From IMG/VR virus record IMGVR_UViG_3300042566_001780, positions 129,190 to 193,189 of that record: DNA of 64,000 nt. The stretch is one strand, 5' to 3'. Both the position numbers and the translations under genes were made by a program. Shown in pieces: positions 6,737 through 62,653 of this stretch. Within the stretch, counting starts at the first letter, position 1, and every line of letters begins with the position of its first letter. Origin of the DNA: a virus. The notes below the pieces were generated by a model. That model was given only the letters and a program-made list of their open reading frames with translations, ran no database searches and was not told the origin of the DNA.

Positions 6737-6828
6737 CTAGCAAAGAAGAGGTTGAGCGACTGTACTATGAAAATGCTCAACCTCTTCCCGAAAAGCTAGT
6801 TAGCAGCAATTTTGCTACGATTGTTGGG

Positions 6829-8769: not shown

Positions 8770-8770
8770 A

Positions 8771-12726: not shown

Positions 12727-12803
12727 CGCCACTTAGCTCAGTTGGTCAGAGCAAGAGCTTCTAACACTCCAGGTCGCGGGTTCGAGCCCCGCAGTGGCGA
12801 CCA
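12727..12803 (+). tRNA. solitary tRNA-like gene, anticodon loop reads uuCUAac (possible CUA amber-suppressor) with weak anticodon stem; encoded CCA
   Basis: 7-bp acceptor cgccact/agtggcg, D arm gctc-agttggtca-gagc, T arm gcggg-ttcgagc-cccgc, CCA end; anticodon stem agagc/actcc has only 3 pairs. Confidence 0.55.
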
Positions 12804-27457: not shown

Positions 27458-27481
27458 GACGAAATTGTTTTGTATGCTTGA

Positions 27482-31169: not shown

Positions 31170-31388
31170 ATGATCATTACTTCAAAACCCAAACTCTCCC
31201 CCGTTACTGCTGACCAAATTGTTCTTCGCCTTGAGGGTATTACCTTGAGTGCAAAGCAACGAGAGCTTGCAGTTCCTCATATCAATAGTTTCCATGAAGG
31301 AAAAATTTCGTATATGCGAATGCTAGACTATGTCAAACGCGCATGCAGTCGAAATAAAGTTTCTCTACTGAATCATCATGATGCCTAA
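31170..31388 (+). CDS. hypothetical protein (72 aa)
   Basis: ORF only. Confidence 0.35.
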   Translation: MIITSKPKLSPVTADQIVLRLEGITLSAKQRELAVPHINSFHEGKISYMRMLDYVKRACSRNKVSLLNHHDA

Positions 31389-31566
31389 CTTCAAAACAAT
31401 TGCTCTTCATGTAGTTGTGGCTCTATTAACCCTTGGGTTTCTTGTGCCGCCTTTCATTAACTCAACAAGCACTTTTCTCGTTATCATTGGTTTCATTCTT
31501 GCAATTGCCAGTGTGGGTTTGATTGTTTTGTCTGCTGTAAAAATTTACTTTTTCTTCCACAAATGA
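31378..31566 (+). CDS. small two-TM membrane protein
   Basis: Hydrophobic 62-aa ORF. Confidence 0.35.
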   Translation: MMPNFKTIALHVVVALLTLGFLVPPFINSTSTFLVIIGFILAIASVGLIVLSAVKIYFFFHK

Positions 31567-31579
31567 GGATTTCTCAAAA

Positions 31580-32464
31580 ATGTCTAATCAATTGAAAGTT
31601 AAGTTATTCGGCATTCTGCTGGCACTATCAGGATTCTTCGGGTTGCTATACATAGCCGTGTTTTTAGAACGTGTGCCAGTAGGTCATGTTGGTGTTATTG
31701 TTAATCTACTTGGATCGGACAAAGGTGTTTCAATCCAGGAAGTTGGTCCAGGTCGACATTTTGTCGGCATCAACCAAAAGCTCTACACCTTCCCAACATT
31801 CACTATGACAGTTGGATGGACAGCAGATTCAAATCCTGAAGTGGGATCACCAAATAATGAGGAAATGAGTTTCCAAACATCTGATGGTCTAGTTGTGACT
31901 GCAGATGTCGGAGCATCAGTTAGTGTAGATCCAAGTAAAGTTTCTATCCTATTCCAAAAGTATCGAAAAGGCATGGATGAAATTGTCGATTCTTATGTTC
32001 GACGAAATATTCAAGATGCTTTGGTTCGAAAAGCCGGCGTAATGGGTGTAGAATCTGTCTATGGCGCTGGTAAGAATGAACTGCTGAATGCTGCCTTTGA
32101 GGATGTTAAGAAAGAGATGGCGGATCTCGGGATTATCATTGAAAAAATGTACTGGATTGGTCAGATTCGTCTCCCTGAAGTGGTGGTGACTGCAATCAAC
32201 AAGAAGATCTCTGCTACCCAAGAAGCTGAACAGCGTCGAAATGAAGTTGAAAAAGCTAAAGCCCAAGCTGCAATTGAACGCGAAAAAGCGCAAGGCGAAG
32301 CTGATGCTGTGCTGATCGCCGCTGAGGCTCAAGCAGAAGCTAACCGTAAGTTGAGTGCGTCAATCACCAAAGAGCTGAATGACTATCGGTCTATTGAGAA
32401 ATGGGATGGAAAGACCCCACAATATATGACAGGTCCAGTGCCTTTCGTCAACTTGCAAAAATGA
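31580..32464 (+). CDS. SPFH/band-7 (prohibitin/HflKC-like) membrane protein
   Basis: N-terminal TM then VPVGHVGVIVNLLG... SPFH beta-rich core and charged AEAQAEANRK coiled tail. Confidence 0.65.
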   Translation: MSNQLKVKLFGILLALSGFFGLLYIAVFLERVPVGHVGVIVNLLGSDKGVSIQEVGPGRHFVGINQKLYTFPTFTMTVGWTADSNPEVGSPNNEEMSFQTSDGLVVTADVGASVSVDPSKVSILFQKYRKGMDEIVDSYVRRNIQDALVRKAGVMGVESVYGAGKNELLNAAFEDVKKEMADLGIIIEKMYWIGQIRLPEVVVTAINKKISATQEAEQRRNEVEKAKAQAAIEREKAQGEADAVLIAAEAQAEANRKLSASITKELNDYRSIEKWDGKTPQYMTGPVPFVNLQK

Positions 32465-32472
32465 GTTGTATA

Positions 32473-32501
32473 ATGGGAAGACTAATAATCTTCCCATTTT
32501 C
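32473..32501 (+). terminator. terminator atgggaaga/tcttcccat + tttt
   Basis: 9-bp stem, T-run. Confidence 0.55.
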
Positions 32502-32506
32502 ATCAA

Positions 32507-32950
32507 ATGAAAAACCTCTACGCTACACAGAAACTTTGGGCTCGTCGGTGGATGGCTCTTGGATCTTTTCTGTACAAAATTTTCAAAGTGCCAATCAACT
32601 TTGTACTTTTTTGTATTAGAATTCCAATCGACTTCTATAAATTTTTGAAGGAAGAACCCGGCGCGGCAATATTTGTAAGCGTTGTCATTTCACTAGTTTT
32701 TTCGGTGATCTTTGCAGTATATACAGACGTACAATTGCAAAAACCAGCTGAAGGTCATCTCATAGCTGAAGTTATGGCAATTGACGGATGTACCGAAAAT
32801 ACTATGAAGCTGCGAGCAGAACGTCAATCTTCTCCAATGACGCGACGAGATGTTCAGCGTGTCAAAGAAGACTGTGAGAAATACTGGGAAGATCAACGCA
32901 TTCTTAAAGAGCAAAAAGAAGCACTTCTGAAAAAAGCTAGACTTCTGTGA
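32507..32950 (+). CDS. hypothetical membrane protein
   Basis: Hydrophobic N-half; 147 aa. Confidence 0.4.
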   Translation: MKNLYATQKLWARRWMALGSFLYKIFKVPINFVLFCIRIPIDFYKFLKEEPGAAIFVSVVISLVFSVIFAVYTDVQLQKPAEGHLIAEVMAIDGCTENTMKLRAERQSSPMTRRDVQRVKEDCEKYWEDQRILKEQKEALLKKARLL

Positions 32951-35855: not shown

Positions 35856-35940
35856 CCATCAGATGCCAAACTGGTTATGGCACTCGACTTTTAATCGAGC
35901 GCGTTACGCTTTGTGGGTTCGAGTCCCACCTGATGGACCA
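35856..35940 (+). tRNA. tRNA-Lys(UUU)-like, 85 nt with long (13-nt) variable arm; encoded CCA
   Basis: Acceptor ccatcag/ctgatgg, D gcca/tggc, anticodon stem ctcga/tcgag loop cuUUUaa, extra arm gcg-tta-cgc, T gtggg-ttcgagt-cccac. Confidence 0.6.
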
Positions 35941-35948
35941 AAGTTTTT

Positions 35949-36024
35949 GCCTGTTTAGCTCAGTTGAGAGAGCAAAATGTTGATAACGTTTAGGTCGCTG
36001 GTTTGAGTCCAGCAACAGGCACCA
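35949..36024 (+). tRNA. tRNA-Ile(GAU)
   Basis: Acceptor gcctgtt/aacaggc, anticodon loop ttGATaa, T gctgg-tttgagt-ccagc, CCA. Confidence 0.8.
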
Positions 36025-36030
36025 AAAAAT

Positions 36031-36115
36031 GTCGCGTGTTGGCTGCTGGTAACGGCCCTCACCCTTTCAAGGTGACGTCTTTATGACTGCGGTTCGATTC
36101 CGCCACGCGACGCCA
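36031..36115 (+). tRNA. tRNA-Glu(UUC)-like, 85 nt with long variable arm; encoded CCA
   Basis: Acceptor gtcgcgt/acgcgac, anticodon stem tcacc/ggtga loop cuUUCaa, extra arm gtc-tttat-gac, T loop ttcgatt. Confidence 0.55.
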
Positions 36116-36121
36116 AGTTAT

Positions 36122-36193
36122 TGGGGGATTGTCATCTGGTGATGACATTGCGCTTTGACCGCAAGAAGGTGGGTTCGATCCCCACTCCCCTTG
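36122..36193 (+). tRNA. tRNA-Gln(UUG), no encoded CCA, U1-U72 mismatch
   Basis: D gtca/tgac, anticodon stem ttgcg/cgcaa loop cuUUGac, T gtggg-ttcgatc-cccac. Confidence 0.6.
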
Positions 36194-36203
36194 CACTTGA
36201 CAT

Positions 36204-36241
36204 AATTGTTCTCCTATAAATAGAGTATAAGGAGAACAATT
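36204..36241 (+). promoter_or_regulatory. perfect 12-bp inverted repeat enclosing TATAAATA late-promoter motif and sequestering the aggag RBS of the GIY-YIG gene
   Basis: aattgttctcct / TATAAATAgagtata / aggagaacaatt-ATG; TATAAATA at 36215..36222. Confidence 0.6.
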
Positions 36242-36910
36242 ATGCAAAAAACACAAAAGAAATATCATTATATTTATAAAACAACTTGTCTAATTACTAA
36301 AAAATTTTATATAGGCATGCACTCAACTGATAACTTAAATGATGGTTATCTTGGAAGTGGAAAGATTCTTAGTTATTCTATTGCCAAATATGGTAAGGCC
36401 AATCATGTTTGCGAAATTTTAGAATATCTACCTAATAGAGAAGCACTAAACGATCGTGAAAAAGAAATAGTAAATGAGGATTTATTAAATCATCCATTAA
36501 ATATTAATCTTGTATATGGTGGTTCTGGTGGAACTCATGGAAAAGAGGCCGAGGTATGGGCAAGACCGGGGTATAAAGAAAGAGTAGCTATTTCTTTATC
36601 TAATGCGATGAAAAAACGTTGGTTACATATAGAATATGCAAATAAAATTAGTTTGCATAGGAAAATACTTTGGACTAATGATGAATATCGAAACAATATG
36701 CTTGTTGTTTTGCGATCGGCTTTTTTGGGAAAACAACACACTGCAAAAAGCAAAGCATTAATTGGTGAAAAAAATTCAATAAGTCAATTAGGATCAAAGA
36801 ATTCCCAGTTTGGAACTTGCTGGATTACTAATGGAATAAAACCAATTAAAATAAAGAAAGAGTGTCTTGACGAATATTTGGTGAAGGGGTATCGTTTAGG
36901 AAGAAAATAA
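36242..36910 (+). CDS. GIY-YIG homing endonuclease (NUMOD3-containing)
   Basis: YHYIYKTTCLITKKFYIGMHST GIY-YIG motif; HTAKSKALIGEKN NUMOD3. Confidence 0.8.
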   Translation: MQKTQKKYHYIYKTTCLITKKFYIGMHSTDNLNDGYLGSGKILSYSIAKYGKANHVCEILEYLPNREALNDREKEIVNEDLLNHPLNINLVYGGSGGTHGKEAEVWARPGYKERVAISLSNAMKKRWLHIEYANKISLHRKILWTNDEYRNNMLVVLRSAFLGKQHTAKSKALIGEKNSISQLGSKNSQFGTCWITNGIKPIKIKKECLDEYLVKGYRLGRK

Positions 36911-36935
36911 TTTGTTCATGTTTAGTGTTATTTGC

Positions 36936-37008
36936 TGGCCGGTAGCTCAGTTGGTAGAGTGTCGGGTTGTTACCCCGGGTGTCGCGAGTTCGAATCTTGC
37001 CCGGCCAG
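36936..37008 (+). tRNA. tRNA-Asn(GUU), no encoded CCA
   Basis: Acceptor tggccgg/ccggcca, D gctc/gagt, anticodon loop ttGTTac, T gcgag-ttcgaat-cttgc. Confidence 0.7.
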
Positions 37009-37021
37009 CAAATAGCATTAT

Positions 37022-37099
37022 AGGGGAGTAGCTCAATTGGCAGAGCGCTGGTCTCCAAAACCAGAGGCTGTTCCGGTTCAAATCCGACCTCCCCTGCCA
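37022..37099 (+). tRNA. tRNA-Trp(CCA), encoded CCA
   Basis: Acceptor aggggag/ctcccct (as in bacterial tRNA-Trp), anticodon stem ctggt/accag loop cuCCAaa. Confidence 0.75.
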
Positions 37100-37154
37100 A
37101 TAATTATAACTTCGATCATCAAAATTTGGTGATGATGGAGATTTTAAAAACAAT

Positions 37155-37230
37155 CTGCACTTAGCTGTTCTGGTGAAAGCATGGCGCTGAAAACGCCGGG
37201 AGACTGGTTCGATCCCAGTAGTGCAGGCCA
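37155..37230 (+). tRNA. tRNA-Phe(GAA), encoded CCA
   Basis: Acceptor ctgcact/agtgcag, anticodon stem tggcg/cgccg loop ctGAAaa, T actgg-ttcgatc-ccagt. Confidence 0.75.
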
Positions 37231-37237
37231 AAATTAT

Positions 37238-37311
37238 GGTGTTGGTAAGATAGTGGTAGTCCGCCTGTCTGTGAAACAGGAAGCGAGGGTTCGATTCCCC
37301 CCTTCACCCCA
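37238..37311 (+). tRNA. probable tRNA-His(GUG) with G-1:C73 and atypical acceptor/T stems
   Basis: Anticodon stem cctgt/acagg loop cuGUGaa; extra 5' G pairing C73 then CCA; two U-U mismatches in acceptor stem. Confidence 0.5.
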
Positions 37312-37318
37312 AAATAAT

Positions 37319-37394
37319 GCCAATGAAGCAATCTGGTGATTGCACCTGACTGTCGATCAGGTTCAGGCGAGTTCGATCCTCGTCATTGGCGCCA
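37319..37394 (+). tRNA. tRNA-Asp(GUC), encoded CCA
   Basis: Acceptor gccaatg/cattggc, D gcaa/ttgc, anticodon loop ctGTCga, T gcgag-ttcgatc-ctcgt. Confidence 0.8.
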
Positions 37395-37399
37395 TTCAT

Positions 37400-37474
37400 G
37401 GTTCATTGGCCGAGAGGCGAGGCAACTTCTTCATGCGGAGTCCTACAGTAGTTCGAATCTACTATGAACCACCA
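37400..37474 (+). tRNA. tRNA-Met/Ile2(CAU), encoded CCA
   Basis: Acceptor ggttcat/atgaacc, anticodon stem acttc/ggagt loop ttCATgc, T agtag-ttcgaat-ctact. Confidence 0.7.
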
Positions 37475-37478
37475 AAAA

Positions 37479-37552
37479 GCCCCTGTAGTTCAATGAAAGA
37501 ACACACCTTTGGTACGGGTGAGAAGACAGTTTGATTCTGTCCTTGGGCACCA
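37479..37552 (+). tRNA. tRNA-Thr(GGU), encoded CCA, two acceptor-stem mismatches
   Basis: D gttc/gaac, anticodon stem cacct/gggtg loop ttGGTac, T gacag-tttgatt-ctgtc. Confidence 0.6.
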
Positions 37553-37601: not shown

Positions 37602-38198
37602 ATGCTAGTTAGCGAGCTTTTTGAAGCAAGAAACCCAAAATTAACCTATACCGAGAAACAAGTCAAGAAGGTCTTAGACCGGGTGACCGTTGAATTGACT
37701 GGAAATGAGAGTGGCGTTATGTCACGTTTAACTACTCGTTATTCCCGTTTAGACAAAGCTGCAAAATTAATGCAGGAAAAGCGTAATGCTCTAAACGAGG
37801 AAATGAAGCAAGTAGCAGAAAGCTTGTTTGATGCTCAAGATGAAGTGTTGACTCGTGTTGTGGATACGGTGTCATACACCATTACTTTGTCTAAAGCAGA
37901 AAAGGCAGAATCAAAATCCCCAACCAAAAAAGTTGATTATTCTGCAGTGGTAAAAGAGCTTGCTCAGATGTTGCCTGAATTACAAGAAAAGATCGACCAA
38001 ATCACTGAGCAATACACCGAAATTATTCAACCAAAAGATACCCCGGTTAAGTTAATTGTTAAGTCAAAACTTGATGAAGGATTCACCGCTTTTGCAAAAT
38101 CTTTAGTCAAGTCATTCAAAGAAATGCTGAAATCTATCAAATCTTGGGGTAAGGATTATGATAAGAGATTGGCTGCTTTGAAGAAACAGACATCATGA
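37602..38198 (+). CDS. hypothetical protein carrying the shared M-L-x-x-E-L-F-E N-terminal leader
   Basis: MLVSELFEA start; helical/charged; directly upstream of the LRR array. Confidence 0.5.
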   Translation: MLVSELFEARNPKLTYTEKQVKKVLDRVTVELTGNESGVMSRLTTRYSRLDKAAKLMQEKRNALNEEMKQVAESLFDAQDEVLTRVVDTVSYTITLSKAEKAESKSPTKKVDYSAVVKELAQMLPELQEKIDQITEQYTEIIQPKDTPVKLIVKSKLDEGFTAFAKSLVKSFKEMLKSIKSWGKDYDKRLAALKKQTS

Positions 38199-38911: not shown

Positions 38912-38912
38912 A

Positions 38913-39383
38913 ATGAAGCTAAAACAATTATTTGAAAATAGCAATAACCAATTTCTTCAAACCCGAGAAGAAATTGAGACATGGCTCCAAAAGATGAAAA
39001 TTAGAAACTACACCATCAGAGATGATCTGATGGTAGATGTTGATGGTAATGTAGATTTAAGTAAAAAGAATTTATCATTTATTCCAGTCAAATTTTGGGA
39101 AGTTGGTGGAGATTTTGATTGTTCTCATAATCAATTAACATCACTCAATGGTGCTCCCAGAGAAGTTGGTGGAAGTTTTTGGTGTGGCCGTAATCAATTA
39201 ACATCTCTTAAGGGAGCACCTAGAGAAGTTGGTAGAGGTTTTTTCTGCTATAACAATCAATTAACATCTATTGAAGGTGCTCCCAGAGAAGTAGGCGCGG
39301 ATTTTAACTGCAGATTTAATAAATTAACATCTCTTGATGGCATTGGTAATGTAGGTGGCCAGATTTATTCGGATCTATCATGA
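38913..39383 (+). CDS. leader-bearing LRR protein (paralog 2)
   Basis: MKLKQLFEN leader at ATG 38913; 5' ~130 nt near-identical to paralog 1; LTSL-GAPREVG repeats. Confidence 0.65.
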   Translation: MKLKQLFENSNNQFLQTREEIETWLQKMKIRNYTIRDDLMVDVDGNVDLSKKNLSFIPVKFWEVGGDFDCSHNQLTSLNGAPREVGGSFWCGRNQLTSLKGAPREVGRGFFCYNNQLTSIEGAPREVGADFNCRFNKLTSLDGIGNVGGQIYSDLS

Positions 39384-40141
39384 AATTAAGACAATTATTT
39401 GAAAATAGCAATACCCAATTTCTTCAAACTAGAGAAGAAATTTCTAATTGGTTGCTCGACAATACCATTCTCAAACCTCATGATTTCCAAATCAATGCCG
39501 ATTTAACTGTTGACGTTTTTTCTAGCTTCAAAATCTTCATGTCAGCATGGGATTATGATTTGTACCGGCTGCCAGTGCGATTTGGATATTGCACTGGCAG
39601 TTTTGCACTATCTCGTATAGCAAATCTACAAACATTAGAAGGTTGTCCAACCCATGTTGAAGGCTCTTTCTTTTGTGAAAGAACAGGCATCCAGGACCTC
39701 CAGGGTGCTCCCAGGGAAGTCGGTGGAGATTTCTTTTGTGGCTATTCAGAATCTCTAATGTCACTCGTGGGTGCTCCAGATAAGGTTGGAAGAAACTTTA
39801 AATGCAATAATTGCCCTGATTTAGAATCTCTAGAGGGCGGTCCTTCTGAAGTTGGCTATGACTACAATTGCTCTTATAATGCATTGCGATCCTTAGTCGG
39901 AGCTCCTAGAGAAATAGGTGGTGAATTTGACTGCTCAAATAATGAATTATTTTCTCTAAAGGGAGCGCCTAGGGATGTTGGTCTTTCATTTGATTGCGCA
40001 AATAATAATTTGACATCATTGAAGGGTGCTCCATTGCACATAGGCGAAGATCTTATAGCTTGGGGAAATCAAATCGCCGGTTCTGCAAATTACGGCTATA
40101 CACCCCGATCTATTGGCGGTGAAATAATCGGGGTTGAATAA
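39380..40141 (+). CDS. leader-bearing LRR protein (paralog 3)
   Basis: MKLRQLFEN leader; GAPREVGGDF / GAPDKVGRNF repeats. Confidence 0.6.
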   Translation: MKLRQLFENSNTQFLQTREEISNWLLDNTILKPHDFQINADLTVDVFSSFKIFMSAWDYDLYRLPVRFGYCTGSFALSRIANLQTLEGCPTHVEGSFFCERTGIQDLQGAPREVGGDFFCGYSESLMSLVGAPDKVGRNFKCNNCPDLESLEGGPSEVGYDYNCSYNALRSLVGAPREIGGEFDCSNNELFSLKGAPRDVGLSFDCANNNLTSLKGAPLHIGEDLIAWGNQIAGSANYGYTPRSIGGEIIGVE

Positions 40142-40911
40142 TGAAATTAGTTGACTTGTTTGAATCAGAAGATGATTTTGATTTCACTACCAAAGATGGA
40201 ATAGCAGAGTGGTTAAAAGTAAATTATATTTGGGAGTTTTATGACATTCATGATGACTTAAGTGTATCTGTTTTTGACAATGTCAATATCACAGTTCTTG
40301 GAAAAGACAAGTCAAAAATTCCAGTTAAGTTTAGAAAAGTATACGCATTTTTAACTGACGTACCAATTACCTCTCTTGAAAATTTTCCAGATTCAGCAAG
40401 AGAAATTATTATTCAAAGTGCAAAAATAAAGAATTTGCAAGGAATCACCCAAGATACCTTTGCATATTCAATACAAGCATGTAAAGAGTTGGAATCTTTA
40501 GATGGATTGCCGCAAGAAGTTAATGGAAGCATTTACATTAACAGATGCCCAATTACTTCCTTAAAGGGATCACCATTAAGAATCGACGGAGATTTTTCTG
40601 TTGTTCGGTGTGGTTTAAAGTCGTTGAGATATGGCCCAAGAGAAGTCACTGGATTACTCGATATACGAAAAAATGAACTAACTTCACTAAAAGGATGTCC
40701 TGAAGGTGTTGATTACATAGATGCCACATCTAATTTGATCACTAATTTGATTGGTGTTCCGGAATCAGCAGATGAACTCTATTTAACAGATAATCCTTTA
40801 GAATCTTTAGAAGGATTGCATGATGGTCGTATTGTTGTTAGATCTATAGGTGCTAATATTTCAAAAGACGAAAAATTGAAATACCCAAATGCCACAATTG
40901 TGACTGAATGA
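40141..40911 (+). CDS. leader-bearing LRR protein (paralog 4, diverged)
   Basis: MKLVDLFES leader; LESLDGLPQEV / ITSLKGSPLRI repeats. Confidence 0.6.
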   Translation: MKLVDLFESEDDFDFTTKDGIAEWLKVNYIWEFYDIHDDLSVSVFDNVNITVLGKDKSKIPVKFRKVYAFLTDVPITSLENFPDSAREIIIQSAKIKNLQGITQDTFAYSIQACKELESLDGLPQEVNGSIYINRCPITSLKGSPLRIDGDFSVVRCGLKSLRYGPREVTGLLDIRKNELTSLKGCPEGVDYIDATSNLITNLIGVPESADELYLTDNPLESLEGLHDGRIVVRSIGANISKDEKLKYPNATIVTE

Positions 40912-40926
40912 AACTGGAGAAAAGTT

Positions 40927-42426
40927 ATGAAATTGAAAGAACTATTAGAATCATATGATGAATTTGACTTTTCTACCAAAGAAGGTATTTCTAATTGGCT
41001 AAAAGAAAAAGGCAACAGAATTGGCAATTACACTATACACGATGATTTGAGTGTATCATTCCATAGCACTGTTTATTGGCATTGGCTGGATGGGATTACT
41101 AAATTACCATTCAAAATTCGCGATGTTAATGGCACCTTTGAGCTCAATGACGTTCCATTAACTACCCTGGAAAATTTTCCAGATAACGCTAATACAATCC
41201 ATCTTGAAAGTCTTGATATTGAAGACTTGACAGGAATTACCCAAACAGCAGAACGATATATTATCAAACACTGCCCTAATTTGAAAAGTCTAGATGGATT
41301 GCCGCCTCATGTAGAAGGCCTAGACCAATGGGCTGGAGTGTTTATTCATAATTCTGGAGTTGAAAGTTTAAGCGGAAGTCCAAGCACAATAAACGGCGAT
41401 TTTGTTGTAATTCGATGCAAATTGAAGTCACTCAAATACGGTCCCAGAGAAGTAACTGGTGAATATGACGTTGAATATAACCAGTTAGAATCGCTGAAAC
41501 ACAGCCCAAGAGCAGCAAGCCAACTATTAGTCGGATATAACAAAATAACATCTCTTAAGGGATGCACACCTGGTATTACTGTATTGAATATTGAGGGAAA
41601 TCCAATATCTTCACTAGATGGATTGCCGGAATCTCTACATAATGATGGTATCGTGTATGCCGAGAGGACAAATATCAGTGATGAAGAAATAGCAAAATAC
41701 CCAAATGGATTCTTCATCAAAGATCATGGAATGTTTGTTGCTGAAGGATGGAAAGAAAAAGCGCAAGTTGCGGGCGCAGCGGCATTAATGGCTACTGCTC
41801 TATTGGTGAATCGCGGACCAGAGGAAGCCCCAAGTGATAGGGCAATTGCAGGAAAAATTGATCATTCTAACATTTCTGTAGAAAAACCAAAATTGAATAA
41901 CAAATCGTCTGTCTTTAGTGGTTCAGCTAAAGTTCTTTATGATGAAGCGAAGAAGCAGGGTATACGCGGGGCAGAATTGATTCAATTGATTGCGCAATCT
42001 GCACATGAGACTGCAAATTTTGGTAAGCTTATTGAGATGGGTAGTAAGGATTATTTCAAGAAATATGATCCCAAACATAACCCAAGGAAAGCCGAAATAC
42101 TTGGAAATACTAAGGTTGGAGATGGTGAAAAATTTAAAGGTCGCGGTTTTCTCCAATTAACGGGTCGTGATGTTTATATGCGAGCTGGAAAAGCTTTAGG
42201 ATTGCCACTAGAAGAGAAACCGGAATTGTTAGAAGATCCAAAGATTGGTGCTAAAGCGTCAATTTGGTTCTGGAAAACCAGGGTTCAGCCAAAGGTCAAA
42301 GATTTCTCTGACGTTGAAGAAGTCACCCAATACATTAACCCGGGATTAAAGGGGTTATCTGATCGACAAAAGAAATTTCGAGAATTTTCTAATCTCTATA
42401 ATCTAGAAACAAAAAAGTCAAAATGA
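40927..42426 (+). CDS. leader + LRR N-domain fused to TM segment and GH19/lysozyme-like (COG3179-type) domain
   Basis: MKLKELLES leader; TM AQVAGAAALMATALLV; C-terminal AQSAHETANF ... EKFKGRGFLQLTGRDVY matches the GH19 signature [FHY]GRGxxQL(T/S). Confidence 0.7.
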   Translation: MKLKELLESYDEFDFSTKEGISNWLKEKGNRIGNYTIHDDLSVSFHSTVYWHWLDGITKLPFKIRDVNGTFELNDVPLTTLENFPDNANTIHLESLDIEDLTGITQTAERYIIKHCPNLKSLDGLPPHVEGLDQWAGVFIHNSGVESLSGSPSTINGDFVVIRCKLKSLKYGPREVTGEYDVEYNQLESLKHSPRAASQLLVGYNKITSLKGCTPGITVLNIEGNPISSLDGLPESLHNDGIVYAERTNISDEEIAKYPNGFFIKDHGMFVAEGWKEKAQVAGAAALMATALLVNRGPEEAPSDRAIAGKIDHSNISVEKPKLNNKSSVFSGSAKVLYDEAKKQGIRGAELIQLIAQSAHETANFGKLIEMGSKDYFKKYDPKHNPRKAEILGNTKVGDGEKFKGRGFLQLTGRDVYMRAGKALGLPLEEKPELLEDPKIGAKASIWFWKTRVQPKVKDFSDVEEVTQYINPGLKGLSDRQKKFREFSNLYNLETKKSK

Positions 42427-42432
42427 GTTAGA

Positions 42433-43107
42433 ATGAATAGAGTTTTTGTGAAGGTTCTATTCAACATGTCAGATCAATTGATTTCTTTGGAATTAACTGC
42501 GCAACAGTTTTATCATTCAAAGTTCAACACATATCACAATTGGGAGCATATTTCTTATGTGCTTTCCCAATATAGAGCAATCTTCAAAAAAGATCCAAGC
42601 AAGACAGAATTTGCAGCCATTCTGTTTCACGATTGCATCTATGTACCAGGTTCTCCTCATGGAGTCAATGAAATGCTGAGTGCGATAACTGCATGTAAAG
42701 TTGTCAAGTTCTCAAACTTCAAAGACATTGATGTAGAGTTGTTAGAGAAAATTATTCTGGCTACGAAGGTCCAAAATTATTTAGATCCTGGATTCTATGA
42801 TGAAGATTGCAATCGCGTGCTGGATGCAGATGTCGCGTCGCTAGCTGCACCGTATGAAGATTTTTTGCAAAACAATGCAAATATCATTTTTGAGAATCAT
42901 GGGCCCGTTCGATTTGGGTATGAAATGGATATTTGCAGTTATGCTTCTGTTGAATTTCTGTTGAAACTTAGTTCAAGATTATACATTTACAGAACTCAAG
43001 AAGCGCGAGAATTACTTGAGGAAAAAGCACGCGACAATATTGACAGGTTTAAACGAAATCCAAGAGACATCAATAGCTATTTGATTAAGTCTTCAGATTT
43101 TTGCTAA
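42433..43107 (+). CDS. HD-domain phosphohydrolase
   Basis: HNWEH ... ILFHDCIY (H..HD) motifs. Confidence 0.55.
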   Translation: MNRVFVKVLFNMSDQLISLELTAQQFYHSKFNTYHNWEHISYVLSQYRAIFKKDPSKTEFAAILFHDCIYVPGSPHGVNEMLSAITACKVVKFSNFKDIDVELLEKIILATKVQNYLDPGFYDEDCNRVLDADVASLAAPYEDFLQNNANIIFENHGPVRFGYEMDICSYASVEFLLKLSSRLYIYRTQEARELLEEKARDNIDRFKRNPRDINSYLIKSSDFC

Positions 43108-43110
43108 TTT

Positions 43111-43434
43111 CTAGCAATCTTCTCCATTTGGTATGTTTTGATCATGCCACTCCCCTTCAATGCAATGCCTGATTTCGTGCAGAAGGCATCTAGGGTAATT
43201 TCGCAAATTAATTATGCAAATTTTTTGTTGATTGACATCTATTAATCTAGCGGATCCTTGAATTTGGGGATTATTGAATCTACTAGGATCGGAATGAATA
43301 ATTAGCCTGAAATCGGAATGAACGATTTCGGGTTTTTTACTGGCACTGAATTGCGAATGACCAGTGCCCGCGCATGCAGTCAGAAGCACAATGAATAGAA
43401 CAGATATGAAATAATTCATAGGTGGGAATAGCAT
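43111..43434 (-). CDS. small lipoprotein with HExxH motif
   Basis: Lipobox VLLTAC; CLLHEIRHC. Confidence 0.45.
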   Translation of the reverse strand: MLFPPMNYFISVLFIVLLTACAGTGHSQFSASKKPEIVHSDFRLIIHSDPSRFNNPQIQGSARLIDVNQQKICIINLRNYPRCLLHEIRHCIEGEWHDQNIPNGEDC

Positions 43435-43492
43435 TTTGTTGATTATTTAGCCTCGAATCATCCTAAAATCATTTTCTTCTATATTTGCATTT

Positions 43493-43924
43493 TTGATACA
43501 ATGTTTTCTCTATAAGGAGAAATCAGTGTCATTTAACATCAACACACAAACGATTAACGTCTCAAAATCTGAATTGCTTAAGATCATGAAGCAAAACCTT
43601 GAACAGCATAAGGTTGAGTTTCAAGAAGCAGTGAAAGATTTTCATCAACGTCTTCAAGAAGATTTGAAACTTGCTCTTAAGAAAGTTTCAAAGATTGAAG
43701 ATCCCCAACAATTGAAGCAGTTCAAATTCAATGTGGCATTTCCAGAAAATCATGAAGAAGATTATCGTCAAGTAATTGAAATGCTTGAAATGTCGGTTGA
43801 CGAAACCATTCAACTGGATACTCGCACATTCAAAGCGTATGTCAAGAATGAGTGGGAATGGAAAATGCGATTCAAGTCACTGACTGAAGTTTATAAGACT
43901 GCCGGGTCTTCACTGTCTCTGTGA
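43493..43924 (+). CDS. hypothetical protein (143 aa)
   Basis: ORF. Confidence 0.45.
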   Translation: MIQCFLYKEKSVSFNINTQTINVSKSELLKIMKQNLEQHKVEFQEAVKDFHQRLQEDLKLALKKVSKIEDPQQLKQFKFNVAFPENHEEDYRQVIEMLEMSVDETIQLDTRTFKAYVKNEWEWKMRFKSLTEVYKTAGSSLSL

Positions 43925-44418
43925 GGACGACACCTTTAGTTCGAGATGAGGTCATTCCCATCTCGAATACTGCTTTATTGAAGGTAGCCGAGTTGAAAGA
44001 CAAAGAATCCCTTTTACTCGGTCATCTTGCCCAATTCACACACGATGAATGTTTCCAAAATGCTGGTTGGAAAATCATTCCGAGTGAACCAAGAGCGCTA
44101 TATGACCGAGAATTAGTCGGATCTGATTTATTACAAGATGATAAAATTGCTACCTTCATGACACAAAATGGAAAGCTGTCATTGAACCACACGATTACCC
44201 ACGATGAATATAACTTTTGGGTCAATAGATTAAGATCCGGATTAGACACAATAATCCAAAGTTTCGAATTTACAGATAACACATATTCTGCGATTCGATA
44301 TAAAGGTGCAATTTCGTTTAGATTATTGTACGCAGCCAGAGATCTTGGAATAAGAGCAGGAATAAGCTCTTACTTTTTTAACCGAGAATTAGCTTACACA
44401 TTCAACTTGAAGGAATGA
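43921..44418 (+). CDS. hypothetical protein (165 aa)
   Basis: GTGA-overlap coupling to upstream ORF. Confidence 0.45.
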   Translation: MRTTPLVRDEVIPISNTALLKVAELKDKESLLLGHLAQFTHDECFQNAGWKIIPSEPRALYDRELVGSDLLQDDKIATFMTQNGKLSLNHTITHDEYNFWVNRLRSGLDTIIQSFEFTDNTYSAIRYKGAISFRLLYAARDLGIRAGISSYFFNRELAYTFNLKE

Positions 44419-44924
44419 AAATTATGGATCAACACGACCACTCTTTTAATGGTATTTCTGAAGATGATCTGATGTCTCTCGATGATTCGTTGGATTTAGA
44501 TATGGCATTCAACACTGATCCATTTCCTGATTGGGTCTATGATATTGCCTGCATGCATCGCAAGTTTGGCGTCAATGAAATTGTACGTGGATTTGATCCA
44601 GAAAAGCTGAAGAAGTTTATTGAATTCCGAATCAAGTTTCTTGAAGAAGAACTTAATGAATCGAAAATTGCAATGGACCAACAAAAGTATGATGACTTTG
44701 TTGATGCCATGATTGATCTTTGTGTGGTAGCAATTGGCACGCTAAATGCACTGGATGTAGATGCATATACAGCATGGGATCGTGTTCATAAGGCAAATAT
44801 GTCTAAGCAGCCGGGGATTAAGCCTGGTCGAGTTAATCCACTTGGCTTGCCCGATTTGATAAAGCCGGAAGGGTGGCAAGCGCCAGAACATACTGATAAC
44901 ATCGGGCTAATGAGCAAACTGTGA
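44415..44924 (+). CDS. MazG-like (all-alpha NTP pyrophosphohydrolase) protein
   Basis: FLEEELNESKIAMD...DDFVDAMIDL...AWDRVHKANMSK helical EExxE/D-rich motifs. Confidence 0.55.
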   Translation: MKIMDQHDHSFNGISEDDLMSLDDSLDLDMAFNTDPFPDWVYDIACMHRKFGVNEIVRGFDPEKLKKFIEFRIKFLEEELNESKIAMDQQKYDDFVDAMIDLCVVAIGTLNALDVDAYTAWDRVHKANMSKQPGIKPGRVNPLGLPDLIKPEGWQAPEHTDNIGLMSKL

Positions 44925-49552: not shown

Positions 49553-51367
49553 ATGGCAGATTTAAACACTTGTCCAAATGGGGCTGGATCAATTAACAAT
49601 CCAGCAAATGCATTACCTGAAATTCCGGCATATGTAGTACCTGAAATTCCAGATGTCAACTATTCAGTCACTGACTGTTTAGTTGACTCAAATATACAAG
49701 AGCAAATTGCAGTTGAGGCTCTCAATATCAGCGGAGCTCCGCTCAACATATTCAAGCTCCTAGGTGTTCATGAACAGGGCAAACTAATTGACTTAACAGG
49801 AAATGGTACTCCGCTTAATGGAAGTGATAATGTTTTTGATTCACTCGCATCTAATTGGGCATCTTCTCAAGTGGGAATGGCTGTGTTGACAACCCCATCA
49901 TGGGTAGGATATGATTTTGGTGTTATAAAAACGAGTTATGGATTGGACGCAAATGGACCTGGTATTGCAAACAATCAGCATATTACATCATTGAGAATTA
50001 CTCAACCTGCTCAAAATAGACGGGCTCTTCAAATTAAAGTTGAACAATCTGATGGGCAATATTCATTATCCAGCCTAATCATTACTGGTTCTGGTACTGC
50101 TACTATTACTGACTTCACCGCTGGGCCCAAATGCAAACCTGGTATATTTTCATTAGTAGCTGATGCAACTAATTCATTTACGGTTTTCTTTATTTCAGGT
50201 ACCACTGAATTAGTCGGCATCTTAAAGCCTAATCTTAGATTCAATTCAAATTACGGATCATTCACGTTAACATCAAATTCCACTTTTGCCAATGGCGACA
50301 TCATCACTGCATCAATTCAATTGAAGTGGAATCGTGTTGATATTGTTAATTTAGTAGATGACGCTACAGCGCAGAATGTTCGCATTAAACAATCTAAGCC
50401 ATCTCGCTATTGGAGAATAGTGCCTACATCATTTAGTGGTGTTGCTTTAAATGAGCCCTGGGAAATATCAAAGCTTGAGCTTTTTGATTATCAAACCACA
50501 CGGCTTGATGATATTCAGGATCCACTATTACTTGAGAATCGCGACCGTGATTATGCATCTCAATCAGTTCAATTAAAGGTTGCCTATCAACCAACTGATA
50601 CTATATCTGATCTATCCAAATTTGGATTTCAGATGACAGATAGTTTCACATTTACCGCAAGCTTTGCCCAAATGGTGAAATTACTTGGAAGGCCTATCGT
50701 AGTCGGTGACGTTTTAGAGCTTCCAAGTGAAATGCAATATGACCAAAATCTGAAACCGGTTAGAAAGTTCTTAGAAGTATCAGATACATCATGGGCGGCT
50801 GATGGGTATACGACTGCCTGGAAACCGATTATGTATCGATTCCAAGCATCTCAGTTAATTCCATCTCAGGAACATCGCGACATTCTTGGCACCGTTGACA
50901 CTCAGAAATTCCTTGTTGATGACGGTACTTTCCTTGATGGTATTGAACAAATTCAAACTGCTCCATTAACGATTTCGCAACAAGTAAAAACTGAAGCCTT
51001 ACAAGAAGTACCAGAAAAAGGTACGAACGTAACTGAAATTGCATCTGGTACTAGTCGATACGGTGAACCTGGTACTTATGATGGACGTGATCTTTATGTT
51101 GAAGATGGGTTACCACCAGATGGGTTACCATATACCGAAGGCTTCAAACTCCCAGATGTAACTGATGCTTCTGATGGAGATTATTTCAGATTAAACTATG
51201 ATCCAAAGATGAATATTGCTTCACGTCTTTACAAGTTTAGCTCAGTTAAAAATAAGTGGATTTATGTTGAAACTGATAGACGTCCTATTAATACTTCACA
51301 CAAGCCTTCACAATTACAAGTCATGCAACAACCTAAAGTCGTTTCCTTAGAAAGCAAAAACCTATGA
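49553..51367 (+). CDS. virion structural protein (604 aa)
   Basis: Tightly packed with neighbours in structural block. Confidence 0.5.
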   Translation: MADLNTCPNGAGSINNPANALPEIPAYVVPEIPDVNYSVTDCLVDSNIQEQIAVEALNISGAPLNIFKLLGVHEQGKLIDLTGNGTPLNGSDNVFDSLASNWASSQVGMAVLTTPSWVGYDFGVIKTSYGLDANGPGIANNQHITSLRITQPAQNRRALQIKVEQSDGQYSLSSLIITGSGTATITDFTAGPKCKPGIFSLVADATNSFTVFFISGTTELVGILKPNLRFNSNYGSFTLTSNSTFANGDIITASIQLKWNRVDIVNLVDDATAQNVRIKQSKPSRYWRIVPTSFSGVALNEPWEISKLELFDYQTTRLDDIQDPLLLENRDRDYASQSVQLKVAYQPTDTISDLSKFGFQMTDSFTFTASFAQMVKLLGRPIVVGDVLELPSEMQYDQNLKPVRKFLEVSDTSWAADGYTTAWKPIMYRFQASQLIPSQEHRDILGTVDTQKFLVDDGTFLDGIEQIQTAPLTISQQVKTEALQEVPEKGTNVTEIASGTSRYGEPGTYDGRDLYVEDGLPPDGLPYTEGFKLPDVTDASDGDYFRLNYDPKMNIASRLYKFSSVKNKWIYVETDRRPINTSHKPSQLQVMQQPKVVSLESKNL

Positions 51368-52104
51368 GACTAAAAGAATTATTCGAAGACATTCATGTCA
51401 TAAAGGATATCTGGACTAAGGAAGAAGCAGATGATCGAGTAGCCAATACTGCATTTCGGCTTGAAGATAAATGGAAAAAATATCCATCAAAAATAAAGTT
51501 TCCAGTCGAAAACTTTGAAGTAGTTCAAGTTAGAAATGCTGGCATCATTATTGACTGGGAAATAGGTTTGCGTAACAAACTGAACGGGCAATTTGCTGCT
51601 ATCTTGAATGCAGACCAGACCTCTATCAAAGTTGGCAAAAAGAAAATAGTTGGTAAAGCTACATCTGTTGCTTCAGTGAATGGCAATTATCTTGGTCAAG
51701 GACTAATGCAAAAGCTCTACCAATACTTGTCTGATAATGGAGAAATTCTATTCTCGTCAACAGACCAGTCTTTTGGTGGTAAAAAGCTATGGCAAAAATT
51801 TGTTCAGGAAAACAACGAAAACACCTTCTTAGTGTTAGAACTGTTTGAGCATAGCTTTTCATTTGTTCAATCAAAAAATAGTTTTGGCAGATTAAGAAAT
51901 GCTGAAGGAGTGTCACCACTTGAATTCTATGAAAAGAATAAGAGTAAAAATGGTGTAGCTCTCATCATCAAAGCTGATTATGACAAACTAATCAAACTTG
52001 CATATTTGAAGTCTTCGGGTAGTTTCAATCCAAGCTATTTTATGACACTGCCAAAAGGCCATCCCCTCATTAGCGAATTCAATTCAATAGCTTTCAGACC
52101 ATGA
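51364..52104 (+). CDS. hypothetical protein with M-R-L-K-E-L-F-E leader
   Basis: MRLKELFED start matches the leader family although body is unrelated. Confidence 0.5.
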   Translation: MRLKELFEDIHVIKDIWTKEEADDRVANTAFRLEDKWKKYPSKIKFPVENFEVVQVRNAGIIIDWEIGLRNKLNGQFAAILNADQTSIKVGKKKIVGKATSVASVNGNYLGQGLMQKLYQYLSDNGEILFSSTDQSFGGKKLWQKFVQENNENTFLVLELFEHSFSFVQSKNSFGRLRNAEGVSPLEFYEKNKSKNGVALIIKADYDKLIKLAYLKSSGSFNPSYFMTLPKGHPLISEFNSIAFRP

Positions 52105-61016: not shown

Positions 61017-61475
61017 ATGCAAACACGATTTATTAATCCATTAGATGAATTATTCGAAATAGACCCTAGTTGCAGAAAAATAGAAGATACTACTGATCGT
61101 GATGATACTGATTATGAAGTAGCTGAAGTCCAAAGTCAACCTGTTGAAGTAGTCAAAGATGAAGAAGATATTGACACTGATCAAAAAATAGATGCAGTAT
61201 ATGATGCAGCGCTCGAAGCTTACCAAAATCAAACTGCTATGGTTGAATTGCTTGAGCCACGATATGCTGCACGTAATGCAGAGGTGGCAGCTACTTATTT
61301 GAATATTGCTTTACAGGCAGTTACTTCAAAAGCTCGTGTAAAGAATGATAGAAAACGGGTTGGACAGTTTATCCCGGGGGCATCCAATAAAATCACGAAT
61401 AATACTATTGTTGCATCCCGGGAAGAAATTCTTAGAATGATTTCAGTTGATGCTGAGACTAAGAAATTATCTTAG
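61017..61475 (+). CDS. acidic hypothetical protein
   Basis: ATG 3 nt after upstream stop. Confidence 0.45.
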   Translation: MQTRFINPLDELFEIDPSCRKIEDTTDRDDTDYEVAEVQSQPVEVVKDEEDIDTDQKIDAVYDAALEAYQNQTAMVELLEPRYAARNAEVAATYLNIALQAVTSKARVKNDRKRVGQFIPGASNKITNNTIVASREEILRMISVDAETKKLS

Positions 61476-62653
61476 TAAGTTAGATTAATGTAACCTTCTA
61501 CATCAATTCCATTATTTTCTAATTCTGCTTTTATTTCTGCAGCGCTCTTACCAGCAACTGAGGAATCAAATGGATTTGAGGTTATCAAAACATTCCCGCC
61601 GATGTAAGAGGCAATGCCTGCAAGATTCTTCAACTTATTATTTCTTGCTGAGAAAGAAGCGCCAACATGTTTTGGGGAACCTTTAAGCGACGTTAATTGA
61701 TTGTTGTCGCTGTTGAATTGTCTCCCAACAAATCTCGGTCCACCCTCAAGATTTTCTAATTTGTTGTTTTGACAACTGAAGTCTGAACCAACATCCTTCA
61801 CACATCCTGCTAAGCTCGTTAGTTTATTTCCACTTAAATCTACAGAACCGCCAACTTCTCTAGGCATTTTTCCAAGTGACATTAGTTTGCAATTCATAGC
61901 TGCATAGTTTGCTCCTACGTACTGTGGGGCAAATTCTAAGGTCTTAAGATTATTTCTTGAGCAATTGAATGAACCTTCAACATGATAAGGACAACCTTCT
62001 AAAGAATCCAAGAATAGATTGCCTTGAATTCTAAAAGATCCACCTATTTTGCCAAATCTGACCGGAATTTTCTTAAGTTTCTTGAATGATAGATCGACGT
62101 CACTAGATACGTCAACAGTCAAATCGTCATTAACAGTGTAGTTGCTAATTTTGTACTTTTTCAATCGCGCAACAACTTCTTCCTTCGAATTAGGAAAATC
62201 ATTATCATTTTCTGGCGTATACACCTTTGTGACTAACTTGCCTAATTGTTTGAAAGCAGCATCGTAGATATTGACCAAAATGTCAACTGGAGCGTCGCCC
62301 ACAATAGAAGGCTTTGGACTCTTCATCTTGTATGGAGTATCAGATGAAGTACCACGAATTTGACCATTTGCGTAGACAATATAGAAGTCTTTCCATGGAC
62401 CTAGCCCAAAACCGGGTTTTGCAAAGTAAAAAGATCCTCTAACAGCAGCTAGAGGACCTGTCTTATCATAAGCAGAAATGGCTTTGTATGAATCTAAGTC
62501 TTTTGCTTTTTCAATAGCAGCTTTAACGTCAGCTTTTGAAGCACCTATATTCTTGAGCCAAACATTGGTTTTTCCTCGTAGATGCTTTGCTTTATCATCA
62601 TACCGAATGAATTGCTCTAGATCTTTATTTTCAAATAATTGTGCCAACTTCAT
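61472..62653 (-). CDS. leader-bearing LRR protein (paralog 6, minus strand)
   Basis: MKLAQLFEN leader; internal NYTVNDDLTVDVSSDVDLSFKKLKKIPVRF module and LTSLKGSPKHVG repeats as in 38195 family. Confidence 0.6.
   Translation of the reverse strand: MKLAQLFENKDLEQFIRYDDKAKHLRGKTNVWLKNIGASKADVKAAIEKAKDLDSYKAISAYDKTGPLAAVRGSFYFAKPGFGLGPWKDFYIVYANGQIRGTSSDTPYKMKSPKPSIVGDAPVDILVNIYDAAFKQLGKLVTKVYTPENDNDFPNSKEEVVARLKKYKISNYTVNDDLTVDVSSDVDLSFKKLKKIPVRFGKIGGSFRIQGNLFLDSLEGCPYHVEGSFNCSRNNLKTLEFAPQYVGANYAAMNCKLMSLGKMPREVGGSVDLSGNKLTSLAGCVKDVGSDFSCQNNKLENLEGGPRFVGRQFNSDNNQLTSLKGSPKHVGASFSARNNKLKNLAGIASYIGGNVLITSNPFDSSVAGKSAAEIKAELENNGIDVEGYINLTY

Follow-up and report, generated by a model that had tools for sequence, protein, structure and literature searches.

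The 64 kb window analyzed here, a stretch of the IMG/VR virus record IMGVR_UViG_3300042566_001780 (positions 129,190 to 193,189), represents ~22% of a genome of ~292 kb. At 40927..42426, on the plus strand, it contains a gene for a protein of 499 amino acids that joins a short N-terminal leader and a set of leucine-rich repeats (LRR) to a glycoside hydrolase family 19 (GH19) domain. An earlier inspection of the letters and their open reading frames (ORFs), made without database searches and hereafter called the sequence-only reading, had placed this gene at the same positions, which proved to be exact; the ORF begins with ATG. Composition and gene content show that the DNA belongs to a large contractile-tailed phage, since the window encodes a tail sheath (54711-56552), a tube protein, a gp3-like sheath stabilizer, an array of 11 tRNAs, NAD-salvage genes and homing endonucleases. 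The tail sheath shares 45-56% sequence identity with its counterparts in T4-core jumbo phages (RsoM2USA, Xoo-sp13, XacN1, PA5oct and the Rak2/Munch group). A megablast search of positions 38000-43500 against 50,697 phage records found no cultured phage matching at the DNA level, and scanning IMG/VR for an exact 59-mer gave no match either.

Modular architecture of the gene at 40927..42426

The protein starts with the leader MKLKELLE (40927..40950), an N-terminal tag that resembles a capsid-targeting sequence (CTS) and has a predicted cut after E8, L6-L7-E8 reading as L-x-E. It is followed by a helical cap and an LRR solenoid of the IpaH/YopM type (residues 9-266; 40951..41724), and then by the junction VAE↓GWK (residues 271-276; 41737..41754; here and below the arrow marks a predicted cut), a putative second prohead-protease site. 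Behind the junction lie an Ala/Gly-rich apolar helix, AQVAGAAALMATALLV, which stays below the threshold for a transmembrane (TM) segment (residues 279-294; 41761..41808), a weakly conserved and disordered linker (residues 295-331; 41809..41919) and the GH19 catalytic domain (residues 332-499; 41920..42423). In an AlphaFold2 (AF2) model built from a 51-sequence alignment (mean pLDDT 86.6), the leader (residues 1-10), an isolated helix (275-293) and the disordered linker (294-330) appear at low confidence and the helical cap (18-27) at high confidence, with pLDDT >90 for both the beta-solenoid (35-264) and the helical GH19 domain (332-498).

The sequence-only reading had recognized a GH19 peptidoglycan-hydrolase domain by the signature AQSAHETANF...KFKGRGFLQLTGRDVY. 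The protein does carry this signature, and profile, structure and model comparisons all support the assignment. Pfam PF00182 matches residues 345-457 with 41.8 bits (gathering cut-off 25.5, E=1.4e-10), phrog_181 ‘endolysin’ matches the domain at 2.9e-33, and phrog_14712 ‘chitinase’ is matched as well. Among solved GH19 endolysins, 9ms7 is the best match by sequence (4e-18), together with 9eoi, 4ok7 and 8p8e, over a range of 4e-18 to 5e-10. Foldseek searches with the AF2 model also returned 9ms7 (target-normalized TM-score 0.75), then 4ok7, 9eoi and 2dbt, and the GH19-like matches include TseP, an effector of the type VI secretion system. The catalytic pair consists of E361 (42007-42009), which lies in AQSAHET and aligns with the AHES Glu of 9ms7, and E370 (42034-42036). 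Both residues are invariant in one alignment and at least 90% conserved in the other (10 and 51 relatives), so that the catalytic Glu, the loss of which had been named as evidence against this function, is retained, and the domain appears catalytically intact by both Glu. Phage GH19 endolysins (PWe2 9ms7, SPN1S 4ok7, Pseudomonas 9eoi and KTN6 gp46 8p8e) share the catalytic fold and the Glu...Glu pair with the protein studied here. By contrast, they are soluble proteins of 180-220 amino acids, some of them with a peptidoglycan-binding module, and they have no CTS-like leader, no LRR and no E↓GWK junction with a Gly/Ala segment.

The model identifies residues ~35-264 as a bacterial LRR solenoid of the IpaH/YopM type. 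LRR_4 scores 24.5, slightly under the Pfam cut-off of 27; phmmer comparison of the LRR part with the PDB retrieved YopM (2e-8), SspH2 (6e-6), SspH1 and IpaH (ids 4ow2, 3g06 and 4nkh), and Foldseek matched the N-domain of the AF2 model to the SspH1 LRR. Repeat type and solenoid are thus those of IpaH, SspH and YopM. Unlike these proteins, the one encoded here has neither a NEL E3 ligase domain nor a type III secretion signal, and its LRR is phage-encoded and paralogous to stand-alone leader+LRR proteins.

Four such leader+LRR paralogs stand in tandem on the plus strand (38195-38911, 38913-39383, 39380-40141 and 40141-40911; 38913 is the true start of an ORF called at 38868), packed or overlapping with the GH19 gene. 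The adjacent one, 40141..40911 (256 aa), aligns end-to-end to residues 1-266 of the GH19 protein (45% identity, E=4e-63) and ends where the latter runs on into ...VAE↓GWKEK.... The GH19 protein can therefore be described as a complete leader+LRR paralog with an appended lysin module, in agreement with the earlier claim that the neighboring paralogs have the leader and LRR module in common with it. A distant LRR paralog of 393 aa (61472..62653, minus strand; leader MKLAQLFE↓N) has its leader at the extreme N-terminus and its LRR only from ~residue 148. The first gene of the cluster (37602..38198, plus strand) encodes a coiled-coil-like protein of 198 aa with the leader variant MLVSELFE↓A. The genes between 37602 and 42426 are packed or overlapping, which suggests a single operon, and the 11-tRNA array (35856..37552, plus strand) lies directly upstream of them. 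Inside that array, a GIY-YIG homing-endonuclease ORF (36242-36910) is arranged like segB in the T4 tRNA cluster.

A leader shared by unrelated proteins

Eight ORFs of the window carry the leader. They are the five tandem LRR genes, the first cluster gene at 37602, the distant paralog at 61472 on the minus strand, and an unrelated ORF of 246 aa among structural genes (51364..52104, plus strand; leader MRLKELFE↓D), which is conserved in a syntenic locus (L001), matches neither Pfam nor PHROG, and is without homologs in cultured phages. A strict leader pattern fits 7 of the 491 ATG-started ORFs of the window, all 7 of them at true gene starts, against ~0.06 expected by chance as estimated from residue frequencies. 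All leaders of the window, and most of those in the wider lysin family described below, end in the prohead-protease motif L/I-x-E (L6-L7-E8↓S9 in the GH19 protein). In another phage, on a contig of 292 kb (LIAN20-1 scaffold_4, here L002), ~ten consecutive unrelated leader genes (MLIEELIDE, MRLLELKEA, MKINQVLVEA, MKVKEIIEA, MKIKELISE, MKINEILAE...) flank a GH19 gene; the domains recognized in them are DUF6267, cytidylyltransferase-like plus glycine-zipper, and GNAT-like. The leaders use different synonymous codons for Leu and Lys, which indicates selection on the peptide and not on the DNA. At the level of sequence comparison, our analyses show that this N-terminal leader of 8-9 residues is a clade-wide tag on unrelated proteins. 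XacN1 has 0 leader ORFs in 65 kb, implying that the tag is confined to certain lineages.

The leader resembles the signal that loads internal proteins (IPs) into the T4 head. IPII and IPIII of T4 start with MKTYQEFIAE↓A and IPI with MKTFKEFTST..., and the T4 prohead protease gp21 cleaves after L/I-X-E (PMC9026906). In the T4 model, the prohead core takes up cargo that is trimmed by gp21 and later ejected (PMC9026906, PMC3012670); a 10-residue CTS suffices to load foreign proteins (PMC9026906; PMC3012670), and the CTS has been regarded in a review as perhaps an evolutionary device for packaging varied proteins (PMC9026906; also PMC3012670). As in T4 IPI, IPII and IPIII (and Alt), the leader is short and ends in L/I-x-E (MKTYQEFIAE↓A in T4, MRA(S/H/Q/K)EFI(T/V)E↓ in the lysin family, MKLKELLE↓S in the GH19 protein). 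As for the T4 IPs, it is common to otherwise unrelated, fast-evolving proteins that are clustered beside a tRNA array and a lysozyme gene: in T4, a tRNA array with the GIY-YIG gene segB inside has as neighbors ipI, ipII/ipIII and the endolysin gene e, which adjoins ipIII. The two systems also differ. The leader considered here has 8-11 residues and deviates in sequence from the T4 CTS, E↓GWK is put forward as an additional conserved site within the protein, and the phage, a jumbo phage of ~292 kb, is only distantly related to T4. Moreover, the T4 IPs are small and basic whereas the cargo is large, acidic and either enzymatic or of the LRR type.

A cross-check was possible in the cultured phage Atu_ph07, a 490 kb Agrobacterium phage with T4 core genes, including the gp21 homolog gp204, for which electrospray ionization tandem mass spectrometry (ESI-MS/MS) has placed 140 of 714 gene products in the virion (PMC6102473). 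We mapped its gp numbers via neighboring annotated genes and predicted masses, and the leader test covers 172 of the 490 kb, about one third of the genome. With the leader pattern fixed beforehand, 6 of the 7 matches at annotated starts are virion proteins, against the base rate of 140/714 (binomial P=3.3e-4). When paralogs are counted singly, the figures are 15/15 versus 49/206 virion proteins (Fisher P=2e-9), and at the family level 4/4 are found in the virion (P=1.5e-3). The sole leader-like protein examined that falls outside the virion proteome is gp17, one weak match. Eleven leader-tagged proteins, gp53-gp63, form a tandem array (L007 39484-49507 and L008 105-1193) and are all in the virion table; their starts are of the form M[RK]WxQLxE... 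(MKWNDLNE↓A, MRWEQLNE↓N, MRWEQLTE↓K ... MRLFQLLE↓T). The same holds for the leader-tagged gp43 (MRLIDLLE↓S), gp482 (MRWNDLLE↓N), gp483 (MLLSELFD↓T) and gp487 (MRYIELCE↓N). The homolog of ORF 37602 in this phage, gp475, is also a virion protein and has no leader at its annotated start.

The gel positions of several of these proteins indicate processing, since their peak slices correspond to masses much smaller than predicted. This is the case for gp53 (87 kDa predicted), found in slice 9 among ~20 kDa proteins, for gp63 (41 kDa), in slice 8 among 27-30 kDa proteins, and for gp482 and gp483 (32-34 kDa), in slice 12 among 13-16 kDa proteins. As for domains, gp53 has a Zeta-toxin kinase domain, most of gp53-gp63 share a conserved ‘YRGM’ motif, and gp482 and gp483 (L003 17532-19254) contain DUF6934, as do N-domains of the GH19 family. 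The Atu_ph07 leader proteins thus have in common with that family the leader type, a tandem paralog array, DUF6934 and a gp21 homolog in the same phage; their cargo is different (Zeta-toxin kinase and YRGM proteins), with no GH19 in the 172 kb examined. The Atu_ph07 paper mentions neither the leader nor the array nor any cleavage (PMC6102473).

A lysin family with interchangeable N-domains

A family search covering 5.8 billion proteins retrieved an identical protein (P0001) on a 291,687-bp metagenomic contig, named ‘putative chitinase’ by the Joint Genome Institute (JGI), and beside it six full-length homolog clusters of 48-90% identity in which every module is kept. More than 110 proteins are alike over the C-terminal module only (~60% identity), many of them on contigs of 290-345 kb; the related contigs are metagenome assemblies of the European Nucleotide Archive (ENA). 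By sequence similarity, these searches show that the lysin module is a large family of uncultured T4-core jumbo phages. The leader+LRR module alone, used as query, found only 10 further clusters, all on short contigs and therefore uninformative about other fusions.

The N-domains of the GH19 family are mutually unrelated and vary from 45 to 557 residues. They include basic modules, with many short members having basic N-regions, DUF6934 (in ~20 members), GNAT-like domains and, in the clade of the protein studied here, LRR. Despite these unrelated N-domains, almost all members start with M(R/K)xx(D/E/Q)(F/L/I)(I/L/V)xE. Judging from these alignments, the LRR part is one among many interchangeable N-domains. 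An E-GW(K/R) junction (E[GS]W[KR]) precedes the GH19 domain in 96 of 120 relatives, with a Gly/Ala-rich stretch directly after it (e.g. LEE↓GWKDWVAGAALGAAALSPQ), and in 90 of the 120 the position three residues before the cut is L/I/V/M/F. In the seven full-length homologs, the junction and apolar helix together make up the most conserved 27-aa stretch (pairwise identity 0.93-0.96, compared with 0.72 in GH19, 0.45 in the LRR and 0.43 in the linker). VAE↓GWK resembles a second prohead-protease site, and we consider it a putative one.

On the L002 contig, a leader-tagged protein of 505 aa (5393-6910) has a cytidylyltransferase-like N-domain and an internal glycine zipper, NWKGAAIGGLAGAGLGALAGGPVGAAIGGWAGA. 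This zipper recalls the GWK plus Gly/Ala module, and the apolar module may not be confined to lysins.

Proposed capsid loading and competing explanations

We favor, with a probability of about 0.55, the reading that the GH19 protein is a capsid-loaded, virion-carried peptidoglycan hydrolase used at infection. Because its leader is like the tag of the injected internal proteins of T4, it is most likely shipped in the particle instead of serving as an ordinary end-of-cycle lysis enzyme. By analogy with T4, the leader would act like a CTS and route the protein into the prohead's scaffolding core, where a gp21-type prohead protease would cleave behind it (L-L-E↓S, after E8) and probably also at the invariant junction V-A-E↓GWK (after E273). 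The cut at the junction would release the LRR as a separate internal protein and give the mature lysin a Gly/Ala-rich apolar peptide as its new N-terminus. The processed proteins would be carried in the head and ejected through the tail with the DNA, and the GH19 domain would digest peptidoglycan locally at entry. The Gly/Ala-rich peptide, GWKEKAQVAGAAALMATALLVN, which we infer to be membrane-active, may hold the GH19 domain at the membrane or in an oligomer. The protein may also have a second role in lysis from within.

The sequence-only reading had hesitated between a virion-associated lysin packaged via its leader and a signal-anchor-release (SAR) endolysin with an LRR wall-binding domain. 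The first proposal is now favored by the CTS-like leader with its protease site, by the unrelated cargo behind that leader and by the Atu_ph07 virion proteins. A GH19 domain preceded by a hydrophobic helix and a leader/LRR module, on which both proposals were built, also stands; the second proposal is not supported, for reasons given below. Particle-carried hydrolases of peptidoglycan or other glycans are found elsewhere. One is the core protein gp16 of the podovirus T7, which lacks a CTS, has a lytic transglycosylase domain, is capsid-internal and is used at entry. Another is the GH19 ‘chitinase’ contained in XacN1 virions (PMC5852040).

Several points weigh against capsid loading. The XacN1 enzyme, ORF272, considered as a homolog of the same architecture, turned out to be a plain GH19 protein of 211 aa without leader, junction or apolar segment, so that it is a weak precedent only. 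Contractile-tailed T4-type phages normally carry a baseplate-hub lysozyme, which makes it less clear why an ejected lysin would be needed, and the GH19 protein, as the only endolysin found in the window, could still be the lysis enzyme of the phage. The protein contains (L/I/V)-x-E in nine places, GH19 domain included, which makes the motif by itself weak evidence; weight can be given only to where it stands and how invariant it is. In contrast to the basic T4 IPs, the LRR part is acidic. The prohead protease of this genome was not seen in the 64 kb window, and its presence is deduced from relatives that encode a gp21-type enzyme (XacN1 ORF297, RsoM2USA ORF379 and Atu_ph07 gp204). The E↓GWK-GH19 family is known from metagenomic sequences alone, and the 172 kb examined in Atu_ph07 revealed no E↓GWK module. 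Finally, the Atu_ph07 test draws on 172 of 490 kb, includes one slice (L003) picked through homology, and counts paralogs that are not independent events.

Other candidate lysis genes were sought in the window. A possible second endolysin on the plus strand (1435-2526) was rejected, as it matches endolysin PHROGs only via LysM and Pfam recognizes a TM segment, SBP_bac_3 and LysM with no catalytic domain; it is a membrane-anchored SBP_bac_3+LysM protein, like the N-domain of MltF without the transglycosylase domain. A possible lysis cassette at 31378..32950, composed of a 62-aa ORF with two strong TM segments (31378-31566) and two TM proteins of 294 and 147 aa, was discarded too: the 294-aa protein is a membrane-anchored SPFH/Band-7 (prohibitin/HflK-like) protein, and with the 62-aa ORF it forms a membrane-scaffold pair (31378-32464, plus strand). 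With these two candidates gone, the earlier remark that the window holds no other obvious endolysin is sustained. Holin and spanin genes were also looked for nearby, and no holin, pinholin or spanin adjoins the GH19 gene in the window.

An unlikely alternative is that the protein is a SAR endolysin, whose Gly/Ala segment would insert in the inner membrane and whose GH19 domain would be exported to the periplasm and released at lysis, with an LRR that is cytoplasmic or has a regulatory or binding role. A Gly/Ala-rich, weakly hydrophobic segment before the muralytic domain is the hallmark of SAR endolysins such as P1 Lyz and phage 21 R. In addition, both phrog_181 and the solved structures nearest to the domain are endolysins, the 64 kb window yielded no second endolysin, basic N-regions occur in many of the short members of the family and, since T4 gene e adjoins the ip genes, the GH19 gene could positionally be the equivalent of e. 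However, a SAR domain is N-terminal, ~20 residues long and clearly above the TM threshold, with a positive N-flank, whereas the segment in the GH19 family is internal, has a core of 14-17 residues, is sub-threshold and has an acidic N-flank. In the protein itself the segment (16 residues, 279-294) comes after a folded domain of ~270 aa and reaches a Kyte-Doolittle (KD) value of only 1.12 in its best 19-residue window, below the usual threshold of 1.6, so that the ‘transmembrane segment’ of the sequence-only reading is better described as an apolar stretch; bona fide membrane anchors elsewhere in the window reach 1.9-3.0. In 95 members of the family, the median apolar core is 14 residues long and the median start is residue 180, and the best 19-residue window stays under KD 1.6 in every one of them (median 0.89, maximum 1.46). 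The mean charge of the 15-residue flanks is -3.9 before the core and +0.75 after it; an N-in/C-out orientation of charges is found in only 1% of the members and the opposite in 99%. Export of GH19 via this segment would, moreover, leave the LRR in the cytoplasm, unable to bind the wall. A SAR mechanism accounts neither for the clade-wide leader on unrelated proteins nor for the invariant E↓GWK, and the lack of an adjoining holin, pinholin or spanin also speaks against it. Such a sub-threshold, internal and wrongly flanked segment, as predicted from the family alignments, argues against export from within; it is compatible with a soluble, holin-dependent role.

That role is the basis of a further alternative, which we hold to be quite unlikely: a soluble cytoplasmic endolysin freed by a holin, with a leader of non-capsid function (translation efficiency, stability or degron, or sorting to a different structure of the phage) and with LRR and apolar helix that regulate or oligomerize the enzyme. 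Most characterized GH19 phage enzymes are endolysins, the function of the leader in this clade is so far read from sequence, and the apolar helix is conserved beyond the needs of an anchor, which fits a protein-protein interface. Against this, the leader resembles the T4 CTS and ends in a protease motif, and the leader proteins of Atu_ph07 are in the virion, several of them apparently processed. Such a tag would be superfluous on an endolysin, and variable N-domains of up to 557 aa before a lysis enzyme are hard to rationalize.

It is very improbable that the protein acts at the tail or baseplate, as a tail-tip virion-associated peptidoglycan hydrolase with the LRR as adaptor to the tail. The GH19 matches do include phrog_3201 ‘tail fiber protein’ and a Klebsiella-phage ‘baseplate wedge subunit’, and tail genes are plentiful in the window, but the gene belongs to the leader/tRNA cluster instead of a baseplate module, paralogs and family N-domains alike are interchangeable, cargo-like modules, and the leader matches head-targeted, not tail, proteins of T4. 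It is hardly credible that the protein is a genuine chitinase, or an auxiliary metabolic enzyme whose substrate is chitin or another polysaccharide instead of peptidoglycan, as the JGI label ‘putative chitinase’, the Pfam GH19 name ‘Chitinase class I’ and the phrog_14712 ‘chitinase’ match might suggest, since short-loop phage GH19 endolysins (9ms7, 9eoi, 4ok7 and 8p8e) rank above plant and Streptomyces chitinases in both sequence and fold and the protein has no chitin carbohydrate-binding module.

Genomic surroundings and wider meaning

Several other genes of the window deserve mention. Directly downstream of the GH19 gene is an HD phosphohydrolase (42433-43107, plus strand). A MazG-like pyrophosphatase (44415-44924, plus strand) and a divergent adenylosuccinate-synthetase-like gene (8741-10066, plus strand) are also present; the PHROG of the latter is annotated as PurZ-type, and PDB comparisons do not separate PurZ from PurA. 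A trio of adenylosuccinate-synthetase-like, HD phosphohydrolase and MazG-like genes is typical of phages with 2-aminoadenine (Z-base; PurZ/DatZ/MazZ). Next to the HD phosphohydrolase, on the strand opposite to its neighbors, is a gene for a predicted lipoprotein of 107 aa (43111-43434, minus strand; phrog_27783) with the lipobox LLTAC and an HExxH metalloprotease-like motif, HEIRH. NAD+ salvage is represented by a nicotinamide phosphoribosyltransferase (4891-6015, plus strand; phrog_448, E=5e-144) and a bifunctional NMN adenylyltransferase/NUDIX protein (10157-11548, plus strand), and an NMT1/TctC-like periplasmic-binding protein with a signal sequence is encoded at 3211-4107 (plus strand). 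An ORF of 2280 aa (18904-25746, plus strand), whose sole match is an ILEI (interleukin-like EMT inducer) domain near its N-terminus, is probably a giant fiber or structural protein; it is followed by a tail-assembly-chaperone gene (25743-26156, plus strand). At 26204-28075, on the minus strand, an IS607-like pair comprises a serine-recombinase-type transposase of 197 aa (phrog_6620, E=2e-50) and a 417-aa ORF without matches. With a GC content of 0.35 and a reversed GC skew, this region is probably a mobile element in the phage genome. Apart from the main tRNA array, a lone tRNA (12727-12803, plus strand) has the CUA anticodon of an amber suppressor (ARAGORN label tRNA-Pyl). TAG is the rarest stop codon in the window (8 of 75 ORFs), and in several cases it is backed up by a further stop within a few codons.

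Three elements are already known singly: internal proteins with a CTS tag, GH19 lysins, and wall hydrolases carried by virions. The literature that we searched contains no description of this leader or of this lysin architecture. The combination of the three elements, the clade-wide leader that jumbo phages place on large enzymatic and LRR cargo, and the invariant, protease-like junction before a Gly/Ala-rich peptide appear to be undescribed there. A broader and much more tentative proposal, which we think doubtful as a whole, is that the N-terminal code M-(K/R)-(L/x)-x-(D/E/Q)-(L/F/I)-(L/F/I/V)-(x)-E↓ is a conserved signal for capsid loading and trimming from T4 to several T4-core jumbo lineages, so that an ‘ejectome’ might be readable from sequence. 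The GH19 family would then be matured at E↓GWK, exposing a membrane-inserting Gly/Ala-rich peptide in analogy to the priming of viral fusion peptides, and the LRR would be freed as an injected effector. If this were true, the ejectome would comprise LRR proteins, GNAT-like and nucleotidyl-transferase-like enzymes, the Zeta-kinase, DUF6934 proteins and GH19 lysins.

How Rak2-like, Atu_ph07-like and related jumbo phages lyse their hosts is still unexplained (PMC6102473), and if the GH19 protein is not a conventional endolysin, the search for the lysis enzyme of jumbo phages is narrowed. If capsid loading is correct, the GH19 family would represent a new class of virion-delivered wall hydrolase, the active form of which is made by the head protease, and the T4 capsid-targeting mechanism would be ancient and widely used for large enzymatic cargo. 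The leader with its cleavage site would provide a natural portable system for packaging foreign proteins into large capsids. If the leader is a capsid-loading tag, the injected arsenal of many uncultured giant phages would become predictable from sequence, and it is there that anti-defense and host-takeover factors would be expected.

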